IMG/VR virus record: IMGVR_UViG_3300027860_000002
Source of the DNA: a virus
Length of the DNA stretch: 35,184 nucleotides
Reading direction: 5' to 3' (one strand)
The first letter of the stretch is position 1. Every line of letters starts with the position of its first letter. Of this stretch, positions 6,501 to 35,184 are shown piece after piece. Position numbers and translations under genes: made by a program. Under the pieces are notes generated by a model. It did not search any database, had not been told where the DNA came from, and was given only the letters and a program-made list of their open reading frames with translations.

Positions 6501-7038
6501 GAAGCTTGAGTAATAGGCCTATATTTTGCAATCCTCCACCAAATACACCGCTGCCCGTTTCTTGGGTACCTCCAAACAACTGATTAAAGACAGGAGTGTC
6601 ATAATTACCAAAGAAACCTGGCTTCCCTTGTTCTTGATAATGCTGTTGCTGTGGCATATTGCCCAGTGAGGATAAAAGGCTAAAAAGATTTTGTAGGCGA
6701 GAAAGATCTTGCTGCTGATTCTGTGTTTCTAAAACTCCTATATTAGATTCTAGATCTGATCCTGCCCTTCCAAGAGCATTAGCAAAGGCACTCGAGCGCT
6801 GGCCGCTTCCACCTAAAGAAGTAAATCGCTCTGCTAGTGATGGTATTGTCTGCGTTTCAAAATTTCTACGTATACTATTGGTTATACCCGATATATCGCT
6901 CGGCTTAGATAAATTACCTAGTAACCCGGCAGCATTTTGTAGCGACTGACCCTGAAATGCTTTTTGCTGAGGATTATAGGTCTCAAGCGATTTAACTTGT
7001 GGTCCAGATCCAAATAATTGTTCATAAAAAGATGCCAT
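6487..7038 (-). CDS. Hypothetical virion protein (183 aa), G/Q/S-rich
   Basis: ORF track. Packed in the operon with a 14-nt overlap. Confidence 0.55.
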   Translation of the reverse strand: MASFYEQLFGSGPQVKSLETYNPQQKAFQGQSLQNAAGLLGNLSKPSDISGITNSIRRNFETQTIPSLAERFTSLGGSGQRSSAFANALGRAGSDLESNIGVLETQNQQQDLSRLQNLFSLLSSLGNMPQQQHYQEQGKPGFFGNYDTPVFNQLFGGTQETGSGVFGGGLQNIGLLLKLLGGI

Positions 7039-7047
7039 ACGATCTCC

Positions 7048-7590
7048 TTAAAATTTAAAGTATTCCCATATGATATACGAGAAATTAAAGTTCGACCTAT
7101 TAGAGGTAGTTGTTATAACTACATTCGTTGCATTAATTGATACCTCTATTGGCGCTCCTGTTGCAGATGGATAGGGCAATTTAATATAATTAAATCCAGT
7201 TGTATCACTTGCCCCTCCGTCTATGCCGACTGTCTGCCATGAGCTATTTGGTGTTAATCCATGAGGAATGTTCTTTACTCCGGCATTAGGCAATTGACCG
7301 GTAGATATAACTAACGTATAAATTTGCCTTGGTTGAGCACTTTGTGGTGTCTGCGAGTTAAGTGTTGGATCAGGGAAAAACTGTTTACCAGAGACAAATT
7401 CTTGGTTATAGAGATAGCCCGATACCCGGTTATTTACGCCAAGCGTCACTTGGTTAACGTTTTGATATAATCGTATCAAAAGCTCTTTAAATCCTGGTGG
7501 CTGTATATTCAGACTTTGTAACTGTTCTACGTCCCATGCATAGGTTGATGGAATATATGCACCAAAGTTTTCTGGATTCGATATAGCCAT
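7048..7590 (-). CDS. Hypothetical tail-associated protein (180 aa)
   Basis: ORF track. Immediately follows the 758-aa tail gene. Confidence 0.55.
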   Translation of the reverse strand: MAISNPENFGAYIPSTYAWDVEQLQSLNIQPPGFKELLIRLYQNVNQVTLGVNNRVSGYLYNQEFVSGKQFFPDPTLNSQTPQSAQPRQIYTLVISTGQLPNAGVKNIPHGLTPNSSWQTVGIDGGASDTTGFNYIKLPYPSATGAPIEVSINATNVVITTTSNRSNFNFSYIIWEYFKF

Positions 7591-7592
7591 AG

Positions 7593-9869
7593 TTATCCTA
7601 ACAAGTCATCACGGGTAGGAGTACAATTGAGTACCATACCTTCAAGGTTAAATCCTTCTAAAGAAACTGCCGCATTCATCATCTCTTCTTGCGTCCAATA
7701 AAGTCGTATCTGTATAAAGCTACCATCAGATTGGCAATAGACGCGATGCCATAGTCGCTGTTGTTGTTGTTCTTGGGGCACTAAGGCATACGGGCTTGTT
7801 TCAAGTATATTCGTTCCTAAGGCAGCTCCTGTAGCTACTCCCTGCGGTACCAGTCCAAGCTCAGAGCTCGAGGCAAAGTAATCGATGGTTATTTCACCGG
7901 CTGCAGTACGAAGTACGCAAAAATCTAAATAAGGAACATAGAAGCTACGACCTTGAGATACATACGGATTCCATTGCTTAGAGTAGATGTCTATCTCAGA
8001 GACGAGGAACATAGTACCCCCACCAGTATAAGGACCAACGAGGCCAGGAATAATAACCTGAATAGTGTTAACGTCAACAACCATATATACCTGATAAATA
8101 CCCGCCACAAAGCCTGTAACACCATTAAGATCGAGTATATACACATAATCTGACTCATCCTCAAAAGTAGATAAGCTATGGCTCATAATAGTAAGCGTTA
8201 CTATATCACCCGCAATCGCTACATTAGTAATAGTGAGAGATTGAGCGTTGGTAGGCAGATCACGGTTCAGAATAAGTACATACCCTTGTTGATTGCCTGC
8301 TAGAACTTGGCGTTGCTGGGCCTGAACAAGCATATCATTCCATGTAGCATCATACTCTTCCCAGGTCTCATTAAGATCTGCCCAGGTAACATCGGTAGAC
8401 TGAAAGAAATAGCCATAACAGAGCCAAGTATCATCAAAAAGAGCCCAAGTTTGATTGGCATAATTATAGACCAGTACTTGATCTGGATAACGATTGGTAT
8501 TAACTGATGGTATTTCTATTGAAGGAAATGACCAATAGACCAGCTCAGAATAATAATCACGTATACCGGCAACACGCTTAGATCCATTCTGCAGTTTACT
8601 AATCTCAAATATTTCATCGGGTATATTATTGTCGATTCGTTCTACGTTTGATCCATTGCAGGCGTGGACGCCAGTATCGCCTATCGCCAATACTACCTTA
8701 TCAAAAGGTACCGTCGAGAAGGTACCTAAAGCACCGAGCTCTTGGTTAAGTTGTTGCCATACAAAAGGCAAGACCTGATTGCCCGTGTATGCAAGTTCCC
8801 AGGTAGACCTTTCAAACTGTACGATCAGTCTATCTTTAATAAACTTAGCCGACACGATCTGTTCTTTTGTTGGCGCATCTATAAACCCTGCACCTGCTGC
8901 GTTAGTACCACCAACTACAACCCCTGGCTCATACCAAGCATTTGTAGCCGTAGGGGATCCATTAATACTATATCTACAGCGGTTGGGGTACGCGTGATTC
9001 TCCATATTAGAATCAAGGAACTCAATAGTATTGAGCATGATAAGACGATTCTTAAATGGCAATATTATGAGTGCTGTTTGAATAAACGAGCCATCAGCTA
9101 AGAACGTAGTTGCATTGCTATAATTGTTCCAGTCAGTGCCATCATATGCCCATATTGGATCATCATTAGCGCCGGGAGCACCTATTGTTGCATTAAAATT
9201 CGTGACAAAAAGATACACGATATCGTCGGCAGGACCATCCCAATTACATGTCCAATAATAGTTGAGATTAGTACCGTGCCATTGCATAGTGCCCACAGAA
9301 GTTGAATTAATAAGGACCCACTGATTCGTTTGCCATTCATAAGCAAACTGTGTATCAAATGCTACGGTAGGTTGATCATTTATGGGGCCAACTTCATAAT
9401 TACAGATTCCCAAAACGGGTTGCCCCGAGTAATAATAGACAGGAGTATTGGCTGGGGCACCCACAAACACAAACTGGCCATTGGCCGTATTAAATGTCTT
9501 TGTAGCTGTTGCACCTGTATCAAGCATTTGGTTGTTGCCGGCAAGATATACTGTGTATATTTCACCACCTATAGAGAACTGTTGGCCCAAAGTACTATAC
9601 ACAGCGCTAGCACCAGGAACAGTACCACTAAGATTCCCTGTACCATTTGTAGTTCCCACTTGCGCACGAAGGCGCGATAATAAGGGGGCAGTCATTGTAT
9701 TCGTTGCCCCATTCCCCATAAGTTCAGATCCCACTCGCTTTCTTACCGTTCCTCTAAATACATAGGCATTATAGAGCTGATAAAAAGCGTCTTCGGGTAT
9801 TTGCCATTGAGGTATACCATTAATAAGGCCTGATTTAAGAGGTGCTATAAGAAAACGATCATATGCCAT
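7593..9869 (-). CDS. Large tail/nozzle protein (758 aa), in the position of T7-type tail tubular protein B
   Basis: Largest ORF in the genome. Called on size and order (capsid, adaptor-like genes, 206 aa, 758 aa). The function is positional only. Confidence 0.5.
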   Translation of the reverse strand: MAYDRFLIAPLKSGLINGIPQWQIPEDAFYQLYNAYVFRGTVRKRVGSELMGNGATNTMTAPLLSRLRAQVGTTNGTGNLSGTVPGASAVYSTLGQQFSIGGEIYTVYLAGNNQMLDTGATATKTFNTANGQFVFVGAPANTPVYYYSGQPVLGICNYEVGPINDQPTVAFDTQFAYEWQTNQWVLINSTSVGTMQWHGTNLNYYWTCNWDGPADDIVYLFVTNFNATIGAPGANDDPIWAYDGTDWNNYSNATTFLADGSFIQTALIILPFKNRLIMLNTIEFLDSNMENHAYPNRCRYSINGSPTATNAWYEPGVVVGGTNAAGAGFIDAPTKEQIVSAKFIKDRLIVQFERSTWELAYTGNQVLPFVWQQLNQELGALGTFSTVPFDKVVLAIGDTGVHACNGSNVERIDNNIPDEIFEISKLQNGSKRVAGIRDYYSELVYWSFPSIEIPSVNTNRYPDQVLVYNYANQTWALFDDTWLCYGYFFQSTDVTWADLNETWEEYDATWNDMLVQAQQRQVLAGNQQGYVLILNRDLPTNAQSLTITNVAIAGDIVTLTIMSHSLSTFEDESDYVYILDLNGVTGFVAGIYQVYMVVDVNTIQVIIPGLVGPYTGGGTMFLVSEIDIYSKQWNPYVSQGRSFYVPYLDFCVLRTAAGEITIDYFASSSELGLVPQGVATGAALGTNILETSPYALVPQEQQQQRLWHRVYCQSDGSFIQIRLYWTQEEMMNAAVSLEGFNLEGMVLNCTPTRDDLLG

Positions 9870-12430: not shown

Positions 12431-13504
12431 TCAATAAAACGTGAAGGTATTACCAGCCATCCAGAACATAGAGTCACCAATACCAGTGTTAGTATTGAAG
12501 CCTCCAGCAGGACCTGCGTTTTGAGCGCCGGCTCCACGCAGACCACCACCAAGCTGCATACCTATAAAAGCAGTATTTAACGTTGCATCACTGAGGATGT
12601 TAACGTTATTAAGTAATGCTATAGAGGTATATTCACCCATCGGTGTGGTTTGAGCAGGAGAGAACGGAACTAAAGCAGCAGGTGGATAGTACGTAGGACC
12701 AGCAAATGCCCAAGGGCCATATGCTGATGTATCTATATTTACTGTAATGGTAAAGAGTGTTGTAGGTTCATTACCGGTTACAATAACAGGAGCGTTACCC
12801 ACAGCAACAATAGTTGTTTGCATACCATCAAGAAGCGCATAATTACCCCATACTTGAGTGCCACCAGGGAAGTTAAGACGTATTTCTTGGCCAACTTGGT
12901 ATCCACTATTAACAGAAGTATAGATAACAGGTGTCACTTCAGCTGACATATAGGTAATAGCTCGATGGTTTGGATACCATTGAGCTACAGGAATAACTCT
13001 ATAACTACCCGCGTTAGAAGCTACAGTACCTACGGCGTTAACGCCACCAAGTGTAAAGCTTACTCCAGGGTTAACCGCAGTAACTTGGAAATCGATACCT
13101 GCAAATTGCGGCTGGTTATTGAGGTTTGCCAATCGCACAAACTGTCCTACGAGAGGAGTAGTCGCTGTCAGAACAACTGGAGGATTAGCAGCGCTAAACC
13201 CAGTAATAGCATATGACACACCAGGAGTAGCAACAGATGTATTAATAACAGTAAACCCGTTGCCAGCAGCAAGTTCACCAACAGTAACCGAGTTATTAGC
13301 TAAACCACCATTCTTAGTCCAGACAACACCCTGGGAAATAGGCATGCCTACTTGCCAGAAGAAATCATAACCCAAAACGGCAGCGGCTTGCGTAAGCGCT
13401 GTTTGATTAAGCACTCTCATCCAACTTACACCCGATGGTATAGGTATGATGATATTAGCACCTGTTGAAGTAAATTGACCTTGTAGAGTAATAGTATTAT
13501 TCAT
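12431..13504 (-). CDS. Abundant virion structural protein (357 aa), possible decoration or second capsid-associated protein
   Basis: Starts 10 nt after the capsid stop codon and is followed by a hairpin. Confidence 0.5.
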   Translation of the reverse strand: MNNTITLQGQFTSTGANIIIPIPSGVSWMRVLNQTALTQAAAVLGYDFFWQVGMPISQGVVWTKNGGLANNSVTVGELAAGNGFTVINTSVATPGVSYAITGFSAANPPVVLTATTPLVGQFVRLANLNNQPQFAGIDFQVTAVNPGVSFTLGGVNAVGTVASNAGSYRVIPVAQWYPNHRAITYMSAEVTPVIYTSVNSGYQVGQEIRLNFPGGTQVWGNYALLDGMQTTIVAVGNAPVIVTGNEPTTLFTITVNIDTSAYGPWAFAGPTYYPPAALVPFSPAQTTPMGEYTSIALLNNVNILSDATLNTAFIGMQLGGGLRGAGAQNAGPAGGFNTNTGIGDSMFWMAGNTFTFY

Positions 13505-13513
13505 AGTTACTCC

Positions 13514-13791
13514 TTAGGCTTGTGTAGCACGTAAATTGATTACCCAGGCATCATTTAAGATACGTGGGACCTCAGCAAACTTGTACCCAACAGACGCATT
13601 GAGAGCTAAAGGACCATCATATATCGGTGGTCGGTATATAAAGGCCGCACTGTATCCATCTTGTTCTACGCAGGCATATGCTTCCATACCAACACAGAAT
13701 ATGTTGTATACGGTATTACCATTTGCAGATGCAAAAGGAATTGCAGAACCAATACTAGAAATCAAAAAGCGTAGGTTGCCAATTGAGCCCC
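13514..13791 (-). CDS. Major capsid protein, exon 3
   Basis: Encodes (W)GSIGNLRFLISSIGSAIPFASANGNTVYNIFCVGMEAYACVEQDGY...RATQA. It has no start codon or RBS of its own. The 5' end at 13791 follows the intron-terminal G at 13792 (uncertain by about 3 nt). Confidence 0.75.
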
Positions 13792-14226
13792 CAATCTGTT
13801 ACTTTCCTATGACTGCCCATTACAAATCGGGTCAGCGGGTTACCCTCTTCCTAGGAGCCGATCACCACGGCTCGGAGTAACCTCTCTATGTTTCCATAGA
13901 GTTCAGACTATCGCATCCTCTTTCGAGGTTTTCGGGTTTAGTCGTTCAGGCTGAATGAAACGTTCTCTCCAGTATTTCAAAAGATCATCGCGATTTAATT
14001 TATTATTAAAATACAAATCAGTATCAACAAATCTATAAATTCTGTCATGACATTCACCACAGAAAATATATTCATCAAAATTACTAACGCGTAAAATAAT
14101 AAAATAATCACAATCTAATGCCATACATTTGATACGTTTCTTCATTCTTGCCCCTTATTGCCGGTTAGCGTATAGCCACTACGGTTTCCAAGTCAATTAC
14201 CGAAAATTTATAGTGAGCTAAGGTTA
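13792..14226 (-). mobile_element. Group I intron 2 in the capsid gene (about 435 nt)
   Basis: P1: exon AGUGAGU pairs with intron GCUCACU, with U.G at the splice site. Shared core GACUAAAC..CCUCGAAAGAGG..GAUAGUC..CUCUAUGGAAACAUAGAG (P7/P8/P9-like, GNRA loops). Terminal G at 13792. Confidence 0.75.
13903..14145 (-). CDS. Intron 2 ORF: 80-aa four-Cys protein of unknown function
   Basis: AAGGGG lies 5 nt before the ATG. Contains CMALDC...CGEC. The last ~14 codons overlap the conserved ribozyme core. Confidence 0.5.
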   Translation of the reverse strand: MKKRIKCMALDCDYFIILRVSNFDEYIFCGECHDRIYRFVDTDLYFNNKLNRDDLLKYWRERFIQPERLNPKTSKEDAIV

Positions 14227-14464
14227 ACTCACTTCGTAAAGCATTCATAGGTGATGGATAGTTATTCTTATGAATAAATCCAGCAACTGCATCTAAGTTA
14301 CCAGTAAGTTGAGTACTGCAAAGAGCAAAGTACGCATCACGTACAGGAGCTGTACCGAAACGGTCTTCGCCCTGAATGTTATCTAATACAGTATACGCAT
14401 TGTTATCAAGCAATGTTCGCACTACAGTATCAACATCAGGTCGTGTTATTTCAGTAGGATTGTC
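14227..14464 (-). CDS. Major capsid protein, exon 2
   Basis: Encodes DNPTEITRPDVDTVVRTLLDNNAYTV...PSPMNALRSE plus one base. It is bounded by the intron 1 terminal G (14465) and the intron 2 5' splice site. Confidence 0.8.
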
Positions 14465-14486
14465 CATTTTCTATTACTTTATTGAC

Positions 14487-15404
14487 TTATATCGAATAAT
14501 ATGCCATTATTTTATCATGATTAAAAAAATTAAAAAATTTAACTATGCATACATAGCTGGATATATCGACGGAGACGGATGTTTTGACATTGGAAAACAG
14601 TATGTTAAAAATCGTCTTAGTCCACGATATCCTGCTGGTATAATAGTATCTTCTACTAATGATAAAATAATAAATTGGTTTAATAATACATTTGGAGGAT
14701 CGGTTCGCTCTTATAAAAAGAGAACTTCTAATCAAAAGCCTATGTATTACTTTATTTTGAGAAAAAATAAAAGTATGTATTTGATTCCAAAAATTCTTCC
14801 TTTTTTGGTTGAAAAACGAGAAGAAGCATGTTTGTTTTTGGAATTTTGTAAACAAACAAACCCTATGAATAAAGAACATCTTATTAATAAGCTTAAAATA
14901 ACCAAAAGTGTGGGCAATCTTGTTACAAAGTATCATAAAGAAGAGTTTGAGCGACTTAAAAGTACAATCAATCCTACGATATATGATTTTGCATATTTGG
15001 CTGGATTTATAGATGCAGAATGTTCGTTGAATATTCAAAAATATAAGCCAAAAAACAAACCAAATTATGTTTATAAGATTCTGTTGCAATGCAACAATAC
15101 TAAAGCACCCGCCTTTAAATGGCTTATTGAAAGATTTGGAGGACAAATACATTTTATTGATCGCAGAAACCATGGAAAAGCAAGAAAGAATCAATTGACC
15201 TGGCGTTTGTCGGGAAAAGCTCTTTCTCATATTCTGCCAAATATTTATCAATTTCTCAGATATAAAAAACCAGTTTGTAAGCAATTGATTAAATTTTATG
15301 AAACAACTCTTAAGAATGGTGGTGCGCGACATACGGATCAATTTAGATCTGAATATGACCGCACTATAAAAATCAGAGAAGAGATTGTAACTAAAGTTCA
15401 TCAA
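14487..15404 (-). CDS. 305-codon intron-sense ORF, codon-aligned antisense to the LAGLIDADG gene. Coding status unknown
   Basis: ORF track. It uses the same triplet phase as the plus-strand gene and is open only because that gene has no TTA, CTA or TCA codons. The F/I/S/K-rich product has no motif I recognise. Confidence 0.2.
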   Translation of the reverse strand: MMNFSYNLFSDFYSAVIFRSKLIRMSRTTILKSCFIKFNQLLTNWFFISEKLINIWQNMRKSFSRQTPGQLILSCFSMVSAINKMYLSSKSFNKPFKGGCFSIVALQQNLINIIWFVFWLIFLNIQRTFCIYKSSQICKIIYRRIDCTFKSLKLFFMILCNKIAHTFGYFKLINKMFFIHRVCLFTKFQKQTCFFSFFNQKRKNFWNQIHTFIFSQNKVIHRLLIRSSLFIRANRSSKCIIKPIYYFIISRRYYYTSRISWTKTIFNILFSNVKTSVSVDISSYVCIVKFFNFFNHDKIMAYYSI

Positions 15405-15434
15405 TTAAACTCCAAGGGCATAAAATCAATATAA
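14517..15434 (+). CDS. Double-motif LAGLIDADG homing endonuclease (305 aa), antisense to intron 1 and the capsid gene
   Basis: Two motifs: YIAGYIDGDGCF and YLAGFIDAECSL. The first ATG is at 14517 (MIKKIKKF). A possible TTGACT-17-CATTAT promoter lies at 14482-14510. Confidence 0.85.
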   Translation: MIKKIKKFNYAYIAGYIDGDGCFDIGKQYVKNRLSPRYPAGIIVSSTNDKIINWFNNTFGGSVRSYKKRTSNQKPMYYFILRKNKSMYLIPKILPFLVEKREEACLFLEFCKQTNPMNKEHLINKLKITKSVGNLVTKYHKEEFERLKSTINPTIYDFAYLAGFIDAECSLNIQKYKPKNKPNYVYKILLQCNNTKAPAFKWLIERFGGQIHFIDRRNHGKARKNQLTWRLSGKALSHILPNIYQFLRYKKPVCKQLIKFYETTLKNGGARHTDQFRSEYDRTIKIREEIVTKVHQLNSKGIKSI

Positions 15435-15621
15435 GCGGGTGATCATTTCTGTCACCTCTTTATGTTTCCATAAAGATTCGACTATCACATCCTCTTTCGA
15501 GGTCTTTCTGTTTAGTCTGTCACGCTGCACAGCAAATACTTGCTTGCGCCTTGTTGTCTCCAGCATTACCTGGTAAGAGTTCCAAGTCCATTAAGAAAGA
15601 TTTTACAACGGCAACAATTCT

Positions 15622-16053
15622 ACCGTTGACACCAGCGGTGCAATTAATAAATGCGGCAGTTGCAGCGAGCATGTCTCTTGTGAGAGTATCCTCTGTCTGT
15701 CTCAAACTTACACCCAAACGTTCCGCTGCCTGATTAAGCACTGGATCTTGGTTTTGGAGCGTAACTTGCTCATTTAATATTATATATTGACCATAAAACG
15801 AAACGGTTGCATCGATATCGATAGCAGTTAGGTTCACTGAAGGAGGCGTCACGCCAGTATTTCCCAAAGGAACTAGTGCTGTTGGTAGGGGATTATATCT
15901 ACGCATTCTCAGCGTAACACCACCATTCCTAGGCATGACCTTAAGTTCAGCTGGTATCTTATGGATCATGTTTGGAACAGGAACCGATAAGAGTTTGTAG
16001 CTAAAACTTTGTTGGACAGGCGCCGGAAGAGTGGTTGTAGTTGTAATAGGCAT
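15622..16053 (-). CDS. Major capsid protein, exon 1 (144 codons)
   Basis: MPITTTTTLPAPVQQSFSYKLL...PRNGGVTLRMRRYNPLP...FINCTAGVNG looks like an HK97-fold podovirus capsid N-terminus. Past the splice site the frame reads on into intron sequence until the stop at 15520. Confidence 0.8.
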
Positions 16054-16213
16054 GTAATAGAACCTTACATTATGCTATTTCACATAAACACACGTAAGTT
16101 GGCGAGACTTGTATCAGCCGTTTTGTGCATACTGCACGATTTGAGTGGACGATGCTCAAGTTCAGTCCTAGGGTTTTGTTGAAGCGAGCGTCACTTCGAT
16201 ACTGCTCAGAGAG

Positions 16214-23940: not shown

Positions 23941-24014
23941 TGGTAACCTGTAAAGGAATCGAACCTTTTCCTCTGGGCTGAAAACCCAGGGTTCTACCAA
24001 TAAACTAACAGGTC
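23941..24014 (-). tRNA. tRNA with anticodon UUC (Glu), CCA encoded
   Basis: Hand-folded cloverleaf: acceptor GACCTGT/ACAGGTT, D arm GTTT-ATTGGTA-GAAC, anticodon stem CTGGG/CCCAG with loop TTTTCAG, T arm AAAGG-TTCGATT-CCTTT. Confidence 0.75.
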
Positions 24015-24109: not shown

Positions 24110-24207
24110 AAACCCGAGTTGGATTCGAACCAACGTCCCGATCGCCCGAAATTACAACTAATAATCTCGTATACCTGGCAACCACTCTACCGCTGAGCTA
24201 TCGGGTA
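24110..24207 (-). tRNA. Atypical 98-nt tRNA-like gene with an extended anticodon arm
   Basis: Canonical TA-GCTC-AGCGGTA-GAGT D arm, GTTGG-TTCGAAT-CCAAC T arm and 6/7-bp acceptor stem. Between them lies GTTGCC-AGGTATA-[CGAGATTA-TTAGTTG-TAATTTCG]-GGCGAT instead of a 17-nt anticodon arm. No CCA is encoded. Confidence 0.55.
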
Positions 24208-24713: not shown

Positions 24714-24799
24714 ACTCATAGATAACAAGTCTCAATTAACTCAGAAGACGAACTCATGGTATAGACTGTATAAATTCAAGAACTCATGCTCATAGCTCA
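24714..24799 (-). repeat. TGAG(C/T/A) motif cluster, 7 copies in minus orientation, spanning the tnpB stop codon
   Basis: On the plus strand: ACTCA at 24714, 24739, 24752 and 24782; TCTCA at 24730; GCTCA at 24788 and 24795. CATGAGTTC occurs twice on the minus strand. Confidence 0.7.
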
Positions 24800-25899
24800 T
24801 AATGACTAGTCAACAAATTTCGGACGCGACTCGCATCGCTCTCGTGGCTCGCTCCAAGCCCGGCAATGAGTGTGTTTTTCGCCGTATTTACGTCGCGATC
24901 ATGAAGAGTTCCACAACTCACACAAACCCATTCCCTTACCTTCAGACAAGTCAATGATGCAGGACCCGAAGGTGATCTACATACCGAACATGTCACGGTG
25001 GAAATCATTGCATTATCTGTACCGGTTTTGCTTGCAAATTCTATATATTTTCTCTCATTATTCTCACTTTTATAACACATCATAAGGCGTAGCTGGTAGT
25101 TAGCAGAATCAGCAACCAAAAGGCCTAGATTACGAGCTCTTTGCTTGAGATCATCTTTATTAACTACTATCGTATCATACTGTTCTACTATTTTGCGAGA
25201 CAGCTTATGATTAGCATCCTTACGGCAATTGGCTATACGCTCATGGAGTCGAGCTACTAACTTTTTATTACCTCCACGCTGTGCCTGGGCCAATCTGTTA
25301 AGGTGTTTTTGTAACTGTGCTTCGCGCTGAATAATATCGCCATTTGATAATGCCATGCGACCATCAACGCTGAGCTGTATACCGATTAATTCACAGCCCT
25401 TATGAGCAATTCTGTTTGATTGAGCATCTATAAATAAACAAAGATAAAAACCCGAAGCACGCTTCACTAAACGAGCACACTTTACCTTACCTATAGGTAT
25501 TCGCTGCTTATGGTATTTTAATTTGCCCAAATAAGGCAATTCTACATAGGTGCGATTGATATGAGCTTCTTTTATTGGATCCGGAAATGAAATAGAAGTA
25601 AGTCTATTTCTTTGCCCCTTTAAGCGCGGCGCTCGAGCTAGCTTTTTAAAACAACGCTGCCATGTGGTATGTGCATCTTTGAGCATCGCTTGAATAGTGT
25701 GTGATGGCATACCTAATCGCTTATTATGACCAGCAAGAATATTAATAAACTCAAACTTATTGTAATAAATATGATCCGCAGCATCCTTCTCTATCTTCTT
25801 TATCGCCCAGTTCCATATGGACGTAAGAATAGGAAACCACTCATTGATCATAGTTTCTTGTTCGCGCTTAAGTTTAAGTTTTAACTGTACTTGTATCAA
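24790..25899 (-). CDS. tnpB: TnpB-like (IS200/IS605 OrfB-type) RuvC/zinc-finger protein, 369 aa, with a non-canonical RuvC-I motif
   Basis: N-terminal KLKLKREQETMINEWFPILTSIWNWA. C-terminal CSVC...CVSCGTLHDRDVNTAKN. The expected G-x-D-x-G motif reads GIQLS (Gln175, codon 25375-25377). TTG start. No tnpA nearby. Confidence 0.8.
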   Translation of the reverse strand: MIQVQLKLKLKREQETMINEWFPILTSIWNWAIKKIEKDAADHIYYNKFEFINILAGHNKRLGMPSHTIQAMLKDAHTTWQRCFKKLARAPRLKGQRNRLTSISFPDPIKEAHINRTYVELPYLGKLKYHKQRIPIGKVKCARLVKRASGFYLCLFIDAQSNRIAHKGCELIGIQLSVDGRMALSNGDIIQREAQLQKHLNRLAQAQRGGNKKLVARLHERIANCRKDANHKLSRKIVEQYDTIVVNKDDLKQRARNLGLLVADSANYQLRLMMCYKSENNERKYIEFASKTGTDNAMISTVTCSVCRSPSGPASLTCLKVREWVCVSCGTLHDRDVNTAKNTLIAGLGASHESDASRVRNLLTSHYEL

Positions 25900-33597: not shown

Positions 33598-35184
33598 CTA
33601 AAGGTTACATTCTTTGCAAGTTGTCTCGTGGTTACGCTTGCGGGGCATGCGGCATGATTCAAGATCGGATATGCGTGCATTGAGCTTCTGTATCTCATTA
33701 AGCAATAATACCGAAATATCATGGTACTTAACTGATTCAGGCGCACCATCTTCATTATATACTACAAGGCGCGGCATCGCTTCTTCTACTTCTTCAGCAA
33801 TAAGACCATATTGCATGCGCTTCGTCTCATCTGCCTTGTAGTTAAACACTACAGGACGCAACTTATAGATAGCATCACTGGCATCATCCATATCGTCTAT
33901 ATTTTCTTTATAGCGAAGCGATGACGATACGGTACCAAGTTGACCAGCACTATCAACTAAGACTGCAATAGCATCGGCATTGCCCGTAGTAACGCCACGT
34001 ATGCCCGCTATAACACACTTGGCTTGGGTGCCTTGTACACCTATGCGGGTAGTAGTATTTTCACCAACTGTTCCTGTTACTGATGCACCAATAAGAATAT
34101 TATTGCTTTCAGCGCCAGTATAAGCACTACCTGCTGTATATCCCAGAAATGTATTATTTGCACCAGTAATGAGGCTATAACCCACTTGATGGCCAAATCC
34201 AGTATTGTGAACACCAGTAGTCAAATTATAAAAACCAAAGTTAGAAACCATGGTAGTTTGAGTAGATGTCGTAAGATTAGTTGCAGCAAAATTACCCATA
34301 AGAAGATTTTGCCCACCAATATGTCCTGCCGCAATACCCGTGTTATGACCAACGATAATATTATTATTAGATGTTCCCACTTGCCCCGTGTTAAGGGATG
34401 AGCCTGAATTGTGTCCAATAATCAATGCATCAAGTAATGGACCTGCATTTTGTGCTGCATTATTACCAATCGCCATAGACACACTAAGATTATTAGAATT
34501 CTGGAAAGCGTTATTACCAATAGCCATGACAACGGAAGATTGGTTTGCTGCCCCTGCATTAAATCCTACAAAAAGATTATTATTGGCACCATTTTGTGCA
34601 TATCCAGCTAGATTTCCAATTCCTATATTATTTACACCAACAGTTTCAGAGTAAAAAGTATCAATTCCCACACCAACACCAGTTCCAGAAGTAAGGGCCT
34701 GGAAAGAACCTTTGCCAAGAGCAGTATTACTATATGAAGTTACATTTTGAAGTGATTGTGCACCAACAGCAGTATTGCCCGATACCCCAGCTGCGGTAGC
34801 CGCATTTTGCATAGCTCTAAAGCCAATACAAACATCGTTATTAGCGTTAGTATTTCCATACGCAGCATTATAACCAATTGCAACTGATGAAGAAATTGCA
34901 GTCGCATTGCCATAAGCATTCCAACCAATTGCTACATTGGCACCTCCGACCCCCGTAAATGCTCCAAGGGCATCATAACCCAAGGCTGTATTACCTGAAG
35001 ATGTAGTATTTAATTGAAATGCACTTGATCCGACAGCAACATTTTGGTTACCGGTTGATTCAGCATTACCCGCAAATGCGCCTACAAATGTGTTATCTGT
35101 TGCAGAAGCCGTAGTCAGGGTAAGATTACCGGCATTTGAGCCTAAAAAGGTATTTCTAGTCCCATAGTTAGAGATAAATGGCTG
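33598..35184 (-). CDS. Tail fibre/tailspike, 3' part, with a C-terminal intramolecular chaperone (peptidase S74-type) domain. Continues at 595-1
   Basis: C-terminal SSLRYKENIDDMDDASDAIYKLRPVVFNYKADETKRMQYGLIAEEVEEAMPRLVVYNEDGAPESVKYHDISVLLLNEIQKLNARISDLE. The ORF-track Met at 34983 is an internal TTG, and the frame stays open to the window end. Confidence 0.85.
   Translation of the reverse strand, partial: QPFISNYGTRNTFLGSNAGNLTLTTASATDNTFVGAFAGNAESTGNQNVAVGSSAFQLNTTSSGNTALGYDALGAFTGVGGANVAIGWNAYGNATAISSSVAIGYNAAYGNTNANNDVCIGFRAMQNAATAAGVSGNTAVGAQSLQNVTSYSNTALGKGSFQALTSGTGVGVGIDTFYSETVGVNNIGIGNLAGYAQNGANNNLFVGFNAGAANQSSVVMAIGNNAFQNSNNLSVSMAIGNNAAQNAGPLLDALIIGHNSGSSLNTGQVGTSNNNIIVGHNTGIAAGHIGGQNLLMGNFAATNLTTSTQTTMVSNFGFYNLTTGVHNTGFGHQVGYSLITGANNTFLGYTAGSAYTGAESNNILIGASVTGTVGENTTTRIGVQGTQAKCVIAGIRGVTTGNADAIAVLVDSAGQLGTVSSSLRYKENIDDMDDASDAIYKLRPVVFNYKADETKRMQYGLIAEEVEEAMPRLVVYNEDGAPESVKYHDISVLLLNEIQKLNARISDLESCRMPRKRNHETTCKECNL
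35058..35184. repeat. Second copy of the 127-nt terminal overlap
   Basis: Identical to 1-127. Confidence 0.9.

Follow-up and report, generated by a model that had tools for sequence, protein, structure and literature searches.

Group I introns in phage capsid genes have already been published, for lactococcal phage Tuc2009 and mycobacteriophage LittleE (PMC3706429). Here the major capsid gene of an uncultured phage is compared with these and related systems; it lies on IMG/VR record IMGVR_UViG_3300027860_000002, a stretch of 35,184 nucleotides (nt) that is called the window throughout. A reading of the window made from its letters alone, referred to below as the sequence-only reading, had proposed that three minus-strand fragments form one capsid gene interrupted by two related group I introns. 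The best explanation of the locus as a whole, to which a probability of roughly 0.88 is given, is that the gene is split in this way and that intron 1 is a mobile element with an antisense homing-endonuclease gene.

How close are the described systems? The LittleE intron (Pope et al. 2013, PMC3706429; JF937101) also interrupts the major capsid gene of a tailed phage, with an exon that ends in U and an intron that ends in G, and it too holds a LAGLIDADG-like frame on the bottom strand. Its splicing has been proven by reverse transcription-polymerase chain reaction (RT-PCR) and by N-terminal sequencing of the capsid protein (PMC3706429). Unlike the present case, LittleE is a 109-kb high-GC siphovirus with a single 819-bp intron, and neither a second intron nor a clade-wide spread over multiple sites has been reported. 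The LittleE intron was considered as a member of the family described below and rejected, since nhmmer found no sequence relation.

IA2 introns such as those of T4 have the paired regions P2 and P7.1/P7.2. These classical introns (td, nrdB and nrdD (sunY)) resemble the present ones in being of the self-splicing type, in interrupting phage protein genes, in having an open reading frame (ORF) looped out from the P6a or P9 region and in having a ribosome-binding site embedded in ribozyme helices; in td, the end of the ORF (I-TevI) likewise overlaps the core (PMC3073962). They differ in that their endonucleases are sense-oriented GIY-YIG or HNH enzymes and their host genes belong to nucleotide metabolism instead of encoding a capsid. 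Several related group I introns within one virion-protein gene are also found in orf142 of Staphylococcus phage Twort, where Landthaler and Shub reportedly described three introns in 1999. By contrast with the present case, Twort is a large myovirus of a Gram-positive host, its orf142 introns are of the IA2 type without endonuclease genes, and the gene is not a capsid gene; its product has since been recognised as the tail tube protein (PMC11878797).

An antisense endonuclease gene with its own promoter, as proposed here, is a feature of nuclear introns in ribosomal DNA (rDNA), such as Didymium I-DirII and L2066 (PMC9548176; PMC3073962). These introns differ in being eukaryotic, in encoding His-Cys box enzymes and in relying on RNA polymerase II, spliceosomal introns and polyadenylation. 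Because the host RNA of rDNA introns is untranslated, a frame without stops opposite the endonuclease gene would be meaningless in that setting. The title of a report on Faustovirus (PMC6247863), a giant amoeba virus with a different capsid fold, likewise names complex splicing of the major capsid gene. The present locus would go beyond these cases in having a distinct intron family, invisible to Rfam and concentrated in one capsid gene at many sites, in placing two introns in one small podovirus-sized genome with a conserved leaderless-promoter layout and, above all, in an orientation-dependent stop-free frame opposite the endonuclease gene, here called the mirror frame.

The capsid gene and its two inserts

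Joined end to end, the three minus-strand pieces (432 + 238 + 278 = 948 nt) give an uninterrupted translation of 315 amino acids (aa), with junctions that read ...AGVNG/DNPTEIT... and ...ALRSE-W-GSIGNLRF.... No other choice of junctions for the capsid exons restores the frame. The coordinates, exon lengths, product size and both junctions given by the sequence-only reading were all verified. Its statement that only the first fragment has a start codon needs qualification: gene callers do begin the exon 2 fragment at an ATG (14467-14465), which consists of the last three bases of intron 1 and is not a real start.

Do the three pieces encode one protein? Alignment to capsid families, proposed as a check by the sequence-only reading, gave a full-length match rather than matches to three separate proteins: the spliced product scores 142 bits against TIGR04387 capsid_maj_N4 (curated equivalog cut-off 60), with residues 4-310 covering positions 1-320 of 324 in the profile. 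It also matches PHROG 1357, 'major head protein' (1e-29, residues 3-276), and Pfam Phage_capsid_4. Among 5.8 billion protein clusters, 2615 relatives were found, most of them uninterrupted and 314-316 aa long, the best being 90% identical over 100% of the query. In an alignment of 13 sequences the residues that flank both junctions are invariant (G141, V142, G144 and D145; R221, S222, E223, W224 and G225), within the motifs GV.G/D.PTEI and ALRSE/W/G.IGNLRF. Moreover, an intronless allele on a 32.6-kb contig (L061), compared by blastn, aligns with window positions 14464-14227 and then directly from 13791 onward. The breaks at 14464/14227 and 13791 show the predicted splice sites to be right to the base. 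The full-length profile match, the colinearity with uninterrupted homologs and the exact breakpoints support the assignment of the three fragments to a single major capsid gene of the N4-gp56 family.

An alternative is that the genome is defective or mis-assembled, the inserts being junk or decayed mobile DNA and the capsid gene a dead locus from which no functional capsid arises. The genome does come from a metagenome assembly, and the exact spliced protein is absent from a collection of 15 billion proteins, which counts against the reading preferred here. However, the exons are 90% identical in amino acids to intact homologs and contain no frameshift or stop, and the pairings of the family consensus are all kept in both introns. 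The window ends in an exact 127-bp direct repeat (1-127 and 35058-35184), so that the contig represents a complete, circularly closed genome of ~35,057 bp (about 35.06 kb), and the capsid locus also emerged from an independent assembly of other data, Logan SRR5829579. The genome showed no second capsid gene, and the same arrangement recurs in dozens of other contigs. A dead gene is therefore very improbable, and the reading as a functional, intron-split gene is retained. No match to the locus or to the intron core was found by blastn among 50,697 phage records, and identity to the nearest cultured capsids and portals does not exceed 27%; this phage thus appears to have no close cultured relative.

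Are the inserts group I introns? The pairings noted by the sequence-only reading are all present, together with the U.G junctions, the terminal G and the shared core and 5' elements. In intron 1, P1 is formed by CAACGGU and GCCGUUG, the guide lying 9 nt into the intron, and P10 is a clean 6-bp pairing of GACAAU with AUUGUU; in intron 2, P1 consists of AGUGAGU and GCUCACU. Both introns have a terminal G before the 3' exon, as do 11 family members read by eye. The elements common to the two are GACUAAAC...CCUCGAAAGAGG...GAUAGUC...GNRA hairpin and, at the 5' end, UAAU(U/G)GACUUGGAA. The proposed relationship of the introns is borne out by this common core, though they belong to two sub-lineages, one with GACAGACUAAA and a P9.1 with a CAGAAAUGA loop, the other with GAACGACUAA and a CGAAGA-type P9.1. 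The ribozyme of intron 1 is complete within 15621-15438; the remainder is the loop of P9.2, followed by a conserved 3' tail.

The decisive evidence for group I identity is comparative. In an alignment of 23 members, comprising 21 compact relatives together with intron 1 and intron 2, the latter with GAAA substituted for its P6a loop, RNAalifold run unguided predicts P1, the long-range P3, P4, P5, P6, P6a and P8. Over the full structure, including the P7 pseudoknot, 97.9% of pairs are standard, compared with 40-47% when the partners are slid by 1-3 columns; double-change cells number 138 compared with 17-31, and the observed values were reached in none of 500 shuffles. Covariation is found at six of seven pairs in P1, six of seven in P3 and five of seven in P6/P6a, and the U.G pair at the 5' splice site is present in all 23. 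P7 and P8 are invariant in this set because its members were selected on them. Among 25 members found by a hidden Markov model (HMM) without the exact motif, P8 has more than ten different complementary stems (for example CGUC/GACG, CUCC/GGAG, CACC/GGUG, CCCA/UGGG and CCCC/GGGG), and the fifth P7 pair is A-U, U-A or G-C.

A P1 of 6-7 bp that ends in U.G directly 5' of the conserved joining segment J1/3, UAAA(A/U)C, is present in 41 of 45 distinct members, whose guides match more than 20 different exon sequences. With shuffled exons, a 6-bp P1 arises in 10% of trials and a 7-bp P1 in 3%. In addition, the first 193 nt of intron 1 fold alone into P1, P3, P4-P6, P8, P9 and P9.1 (z = -4.1; none of 200 shuffled sequences folds as well). 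It is thus supported that both inserts carry every hallmark of group I introns that can be read from sequence.

To which class do these introns belong? The IA2 type, as defined by Michel and Westhof in 1990, has P2 as well as P7.1/P7.2 between P7 and P3'. In the present introns, only the five bases UAAA(A/U) separate P1 from P3 and a single A separates the 5' strand of P7 from P3', which leaves no P2 and no P7.1/P7.2. Therefore, they are not of the IA2 type that is usual in phages.

In the proposed course of expression, both introns would be removed from the late pre-messenger RNA (pre-mRNA) to give the 315-aa capsid protein. As the anatomy suggests, the internal guide would pair with the last 6-7 exon bases and the U.G pair would mark the splice site. 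The compact core would fold into P3-P8 and P4-P6 domains with a P3/P7 pseudoknot, and the terminal G would serve the second step. Could the inserts instead be inteins, group II introns or sites of translational bypass? Nothing beyond the bare fact of an interrupted gene speaks for this. The inserts are out of frame with the exons and contain stops, unlike inteins; no reverse transcriptase and no Rfam group II match was found; and their lengths of 435 and 1157 nt are far above known bypass. These explanations are extremely improbable, and group I introns remain the preferred identity of both inserts.

Reading frames within the introns

Most of intron 1 is filled by an antisense endonuclease gene, which is an addition to the sequence-only reading. 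The gene is, by all indications, an intact homing-endonuclease gene with two LAGLIDADG motifs. Its product matches Pfam PF00961 LAGLIDADG_1 over two stretches (45.3 bits, cut-off 23.1), PF14528 (24.7 bits, cut-off 22.5) and PHROG (1e-34), and both acidic catalytic residues are present. Distant relatives in the PDB include I-MsoI, I-CreI and I-AniI.

Seven other contigs (L027, L034 and L148-L152) have antisense homologs at the same capsid site (aa 144/145). All are intact and 51-67% identical in amino acids to the window protein and to each other, with one pair at 86%. The P9.2 helix that bounds the insert covaries among them, from CUUAUAU/AUAUAAG in the window to CUUACGG/CCGUAAG in L027 and CUUAAACG/CGUUUAAG in L034, and this pins down where in the structure the insert lies. 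The two arms of P9.2 in the window (15429-15435 and 14486-14492) each read ATATAAG on their own strand and supply the TAA stop of the endonuclease gene on one strand and that of the mirror frame on the other.

How would an antisense gene be expressed? In the window, L027 and L034, the ATG is preceded by TTGACT or TGGACT, a spacer of 16-17 nt and CATTAT, TATATT or TATACT, and the site always ends exactly 6 nt before the ATG. A promoter scan of the whole region found such sites no more often than expected by chance, which is a point against a promoter, and the argument for one rests on the conserved position. This position suggests that the endonuclease gene may have a sigma-70-like promoter of its own and yield a leaderless mRNA. 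The enzyme would then cut intronless capsid alleles at ...GVNG/DNPT..., and repair would copy the intron into them; an example of such an intronless junction is that of L061, ...GGTGTGAATGGT/GATAACCCAACC....

The strand opposite this gene, which is that of the capsid mRNA, is open in one frame. In the window, the mirror frame starts with TTG-ATG just past the 5' arm of P9.2, and its TAA stop lies inside the 3' arm. Despite a G+C content of 30%, the endonuclease gene contains only two TTA, CTA or TCA codons, both among its last ten codons; the genes of the phage itself use these codons at 3.8%, so that 11.6 would be expected (P ~7e-6 given the protein composition). It is owing to this scarcity that the capsid-mRNA strand has a frame without stops. 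Its other two frames contain 16 and 31 stops opposite the window gene, and 16-38 across the antisense genes scored.

Is this a peculiarity of one gene? Thirteen antisense LAGLIDADG genes were compared, eight at the intron 1 site (the window, L027, L034 and L148-L152) and five single-motif genes in P6a loops (L007, L010, L015, L023 and L054). All 13 have 0-2 TTA/CTA/TCA codons per gene; the eight that were surveyed first, which are not the eight of the intron 1 site, have 10 in a total of 1684 codons. In L060, whose LAGLIDADG gene is the family's only sense-oriented one, that gene has 24 among 357. In the three lineages scored, the open mirror frame spans 291-296 codons; five further homologs contain just 0-2 stops when the frame is aligned. 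Each mirror frame is opened by an ATG near the start of the insert, with purine-rich sequence upstream. In L027, the mirror frame runs in frame past P9.2 and the 3' splice site and on into capsid exon 2, as a 481-aa ORF (6505-7950, plus strand), which may be due to chance.

Does the mirror frame encode a second protein? The length of the open frame in three lineages, the conserved ATG and the purine-rich upstream sequence would fit such dual coding. However, the translation has no Pfam match, its composition is that of an antisense translation, and in P6a-type introns the frame ends at the first stop of the ribozyme core, in all three registers. The mirror 'protein' is 31-42% identical between lineages. 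Synonymous sites are saturated between homologs: identical codons at conserved residues were observed 1949 times compared with 1793 expected, most pairs being at expectation, so that there is no extra constraint on the mirror sequence. Dual coding is thus unlikely, and the saturated sites together with the open frames indicate that it is the freedom from stops that selection has kept, and not the sequence of a mirror protein.

The preferred explanation of the mirror frame is that ribosomes would have to cross the insert, running along the stop-free frame, so that neither the capsid pre-mRNA nor the late genes downstream would be lost to Rho-type termination or decay. More tentatively, and at somewhat less than even odds, a long insert left untranslated on the mRNA strand may be a liability in bacteria, and selection may have removed in-frame stops from that strand so that ribosomes can traverse the insert. 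The result would be a 'spacer ORF', conserved in nothing but its openness, that would reflect an unrecognised rule of co-evolution between intron, endonuclease and host. The LittleE intron was considered as a further case and rejected, as its mirror frame has two internal stops; LittleE is the only experimentally studied analogue, and this result counts against the shielding role. No description of a stop-free frame opposite antisense endonuclease genes was found in the literature searched. The orientation-specific purge of TTA, CTA and TCA codons could offer a handle on the long-standing question of how, in bacteria, where translation is coupled to transcription, self-splicing introns can persist with large inserts.

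Intron 2 contains a different frame, again not mentioned by the sequence-only reading: a sense-strand ORF of 80 aa in its P6a loop. Here P6a is formed by GAAUGAA and UUCAUUC, and the ORF continues from it through J6/7, P7, P3', P8 and P7' to stop at a UGA just past P7'. It has no homolog other than itself in the 5.8 billion clusters and no significant Pfam or PHROG match, the closest being a sub-threshold match to IBR (E = 0.061). The ORF may be a remnant, or a spacer ORF like the mirror frame. Unrelated small ORFs of 42-83 aa occupy the P6a loops of many members (L001, L014, L016, L021, L022, L024, L028, L031, L046, L048, L049, L060, L145 and the window), several of them with CxxC...CxxC spacing. 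All share an end encoded by the ribozyme core, (Q)PERL[NS]..SKEDAIV, and stop at the UGA after P7', as scored in one frame.

Such frames bear on whether the inserts, although derived from group I introns, may no longer splice by themselves and need a host factor or an intron-encoded maturase, either the LAGLIDADG protein or the 80-aa ORF. I-AniI, which is among the nearest solved relatives of the endonuclease, itself has maturase activity. Some organellar LAGLIDADG proteins are known to be maturases (PMC3073962), many family members contain small ORFs, and the core is minimal, with no P2, few peripheral elements and only 4 bp each in P4 and P8. By contrast, compact ORF-less introns are found at the same sites in otherwise intact capsid genes (L005 and L051, the latter at the site of intron 2), so that an intron-encoded helper is not general. 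The strong covariation of the core helices is as expected of an active ribozyme, and the 80-aa ORF is an orphan. Protein-dependent splicing is accordingly judged unlikely, and splicing by the ribozymes themselves is preferred. The features of the locus are collected in Table 1.

Table 1. Positions of the capsid exons, introns, structural elements and intron reading frames in the window
Feature	Position	Strand	Details
Capsid exon 1	15622-16053	-	432 nt, aa 1-144; ATG at 16053; last 7 nt CAACGGU form the 5' strand of P1
Capsid exon 2	14227-14464	-	238 nt; without a start codon of its own
Capsid exon 3	13514-13791	-	278 nt, stop codon included
Intron 1 (putative group I)	14465-15621	-	1157 nt; 5' end AGAAUUGUUGCCGUUG, 3' end ...AGAAAAUG (terminal G)
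Intron 1 internal guide	15606-15618	-	AUUGUU 15618-15613, P10 with first 6 nt of exon 2; GCCGUUG 15612-15606, P1 with U.G at junction
Intron 1 ribozyme core	15438-15600	-	P3 UCUUUCU 15600-15594 / AGAAAGA 15509-15503; P4 CUUG/CAAG; P5 hairpin with GUAAUG loop; P6+P6a 15549-15522; P7 GACUA 15517-15513 / UAGUC 15484-15480; P8 CCUC-GAAA-GAGG 15502-15491; P9 with GAAA loop 15475-15458; P9.1 15456-15438; no P2, no P7.1/P7.2
Intron 1 P9.2	14486-15435	-	CUUAUAU 15435-15429 / AUAUAAG 14492-14486; 0.93-kb loop holds endonuclease gene
Intron 1 conserved 3' tail	14465-14486	-	GUCAAUAAAGUAAUAGAAAAUG, terminal G; family consensus GUCAnnAAAGUAAYAGnnnnG
LAGLIDADG homing-endonuclease gene (predicted)	14517-15434	+	Antisense to capsid; 305 aa; motifs IAGYIDGDG and LAGFIDAEC
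Promoter-like site	14482-14510	+	TTGACT-17 nt-(TG)CATTAT; ends 6 nt before endonuclease ATG
Mirror frame	14487-15404	-	Capsid-mRNA strand, codon-aligned with endonuclease gene; 305 codons; ATG at 15401
Intron 2 (putative group I)	13792-14226	-	435 nt; 5' end UAACCUUAGCUCACU, 3' end ...AACAGAUUG (terminal G)
Intron 2, 5' half	14141-14218	-	Guide GCUCACU 14218-14212; P3 5' strand UUUUCGG 14206-14200; J3/4+P4 UAAUUGACUUGG; P5; P4 3' strand UAAG; P6 5' strand GGC; P6a 5' strand GAAUGAA 14147-14141
Intron 2, 3' half	13813-13959	-	P6a 3' strand UUCAUUC 13959-13953; P6 3' strand; P7 GACUA 13943-13939 / UAGUC 13910-13906; P3 3' strand CCGAAAA 13935-13929; P8 13928-13917; P9 with GAAA loop 13901-13884; P9.1 13882-13838; P9.2 13835-13813
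80-aa ORF in P6a loop of intron 2	13903-14145	-	Sense strand; C-x4-C ... C-x2-C spacing; ATG within P6a

Spread and detection of the intron family

A 23-nt core, CCTCGAAAGAGGATGYGATAGTC, is present in 60 IMG/VR viral contigs, and the family HMM finds 91 intron cores in the loci examined; it finds no further introns of the family elsewhere in the window. This capsid family is present on 53 of the 60 contigs with the core motif, and nearly all of these genes are interrupted. They have 1-4 introns per gene at more than 15 positions along the protein, with five exon blocks in L028 and L145, and the sites of intron 1 and intron 2 are also occupied by family members in other phages. Uninterrupted genes are found as well, including all of the best 80 among at least 574 IMG/VR matches to the capsid. 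Intron-plus and intron-minus alleles thus coexist, as expected for homing elements. The capsid gene appears to be an intron hot-spot in this phage clade, and the most highly expressed late gene can evidently tolerate up to four introns.

The sequence-only reading had called two self-splicing introns in such a gene unusual. This stands in so far as most relatives of the gene are uninterrupted; it does not stand for the clade, where capsid introns are common among contigs with the core motif, nor for phages at large, where capsid group I introns were already published. The contig L145 (JAJFUZ010000398.1, 39.8 kb) is the only match for the intron core in GTDB genomes; it belongs to the same clade and was binned as 'MAG: Parachlamydia sp.', a metagenome-assembled genome (MAG). 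Parachlamydia was considered as a host and set aside: a single phage-sized contig in a MAG bin may be a binning artefact or a hint, and is too weak to use. In the cultured Stenotrophomonas phage StenR_269 (L146, OR838459.1), a LAGLIDADG gene annotated 'intron homing endonuclease' (51942-52391) lies immediately upstream of an uninterrupted capsid gene of the same family (25% identity). It was rejected as an intron case, being free-standing and outside any intron.

What weighs against the reading of the two inserts as active group I introns? A search with Rfam group I models, which the sequence-only reading had named as a check, looks negative. At the gathering score, the only matches in the whole window are one transfer RNA (tRNA) and one tRNA-like match, and at E<=10 the region 13400-16200 (2.8 kb) yields noise only and no group I match. 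The model RF00028 (Intron_gpI) scores 26.2 bits, below its gathering score of 50, when it is given the first 281 nt of intron 1 alone (E = 5.8e-5 for that small search); it finds neither the compact intron-2-type member L051 nor, at the gathering score, 16 family loci. The P10 pairing of intron 2 is weak, with 4 bp, two of them G.U, and a one-base offset; group I introns often have a P10, but not always. The relation to translation is a further difficulty. The exon 1 frame stays open for 102 nt into intron 1 (15520-15621), its first stop being the UGA at 15522-15520 in J6/7, and the catalytic core is traversed by the ORF of intron 2. According to published work on T4, ribosomes that read into an intron, or an ORF that crosses the core, can hinder splicing, which suggests that both need regulation (PMC3073962).

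The exon 2 frame also stays open, for 62 nt into intron 2 (14165-14226), and ends at a UAA in P5. As described for most bacterial group I introns, a stop comes directly after the splice site; both read-ins here go further.

The weak Rfam score is a limit of the model and not a structural failure. The alignment of RF00028 with intron 1 runs end to end (1-253) and recovers the same P1, P3, P4-P6, P7, P8 and P9 as drawn by hand, its P2 positions being deleted. This model is known to miss phage variants, a point also made in a 2025 survey of phage introns (PMC11878797). Since standard models miss the family, gene callers report these capsid genes as 2-5 fragments. A large and structurally well-defined group I intron family would thus have been missed by current annotation tools in abundant uncultured phages. 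The compact ORF-less members (about 200-220 nt), and the pairs of endonuclease and target, could serve as parts for ribozyme and genome engineering.

A TnpB-like gene and a tRNA-like element

Outside the capsid locus, a 369-aa ORF on the minus strand of the window (24790-25899) matches the TnpB / Cas12f1-like TNB domain and OrfB_IS605 (Pfam, 2.2e-10 and 4.9e-8). These matches point to an IS200/IS605-type gene for an RNA-guided nuclease in the phage, which adjoins the tRNA region near the portal gene. ARAGORN calls only a tRNA-Glu(UUC) at 23941-24014. The second of the two Rfam tRNA matches, at 24110-24207 on the minus strand (38.7 bits), is not called by ARAGORN; where the anticodon arm should be, it carries 31 inserted nt. 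An interrupted or degenerate tRNA is one possible identity, and another is a tRNA-like element lying downstream of the TnpB gene.

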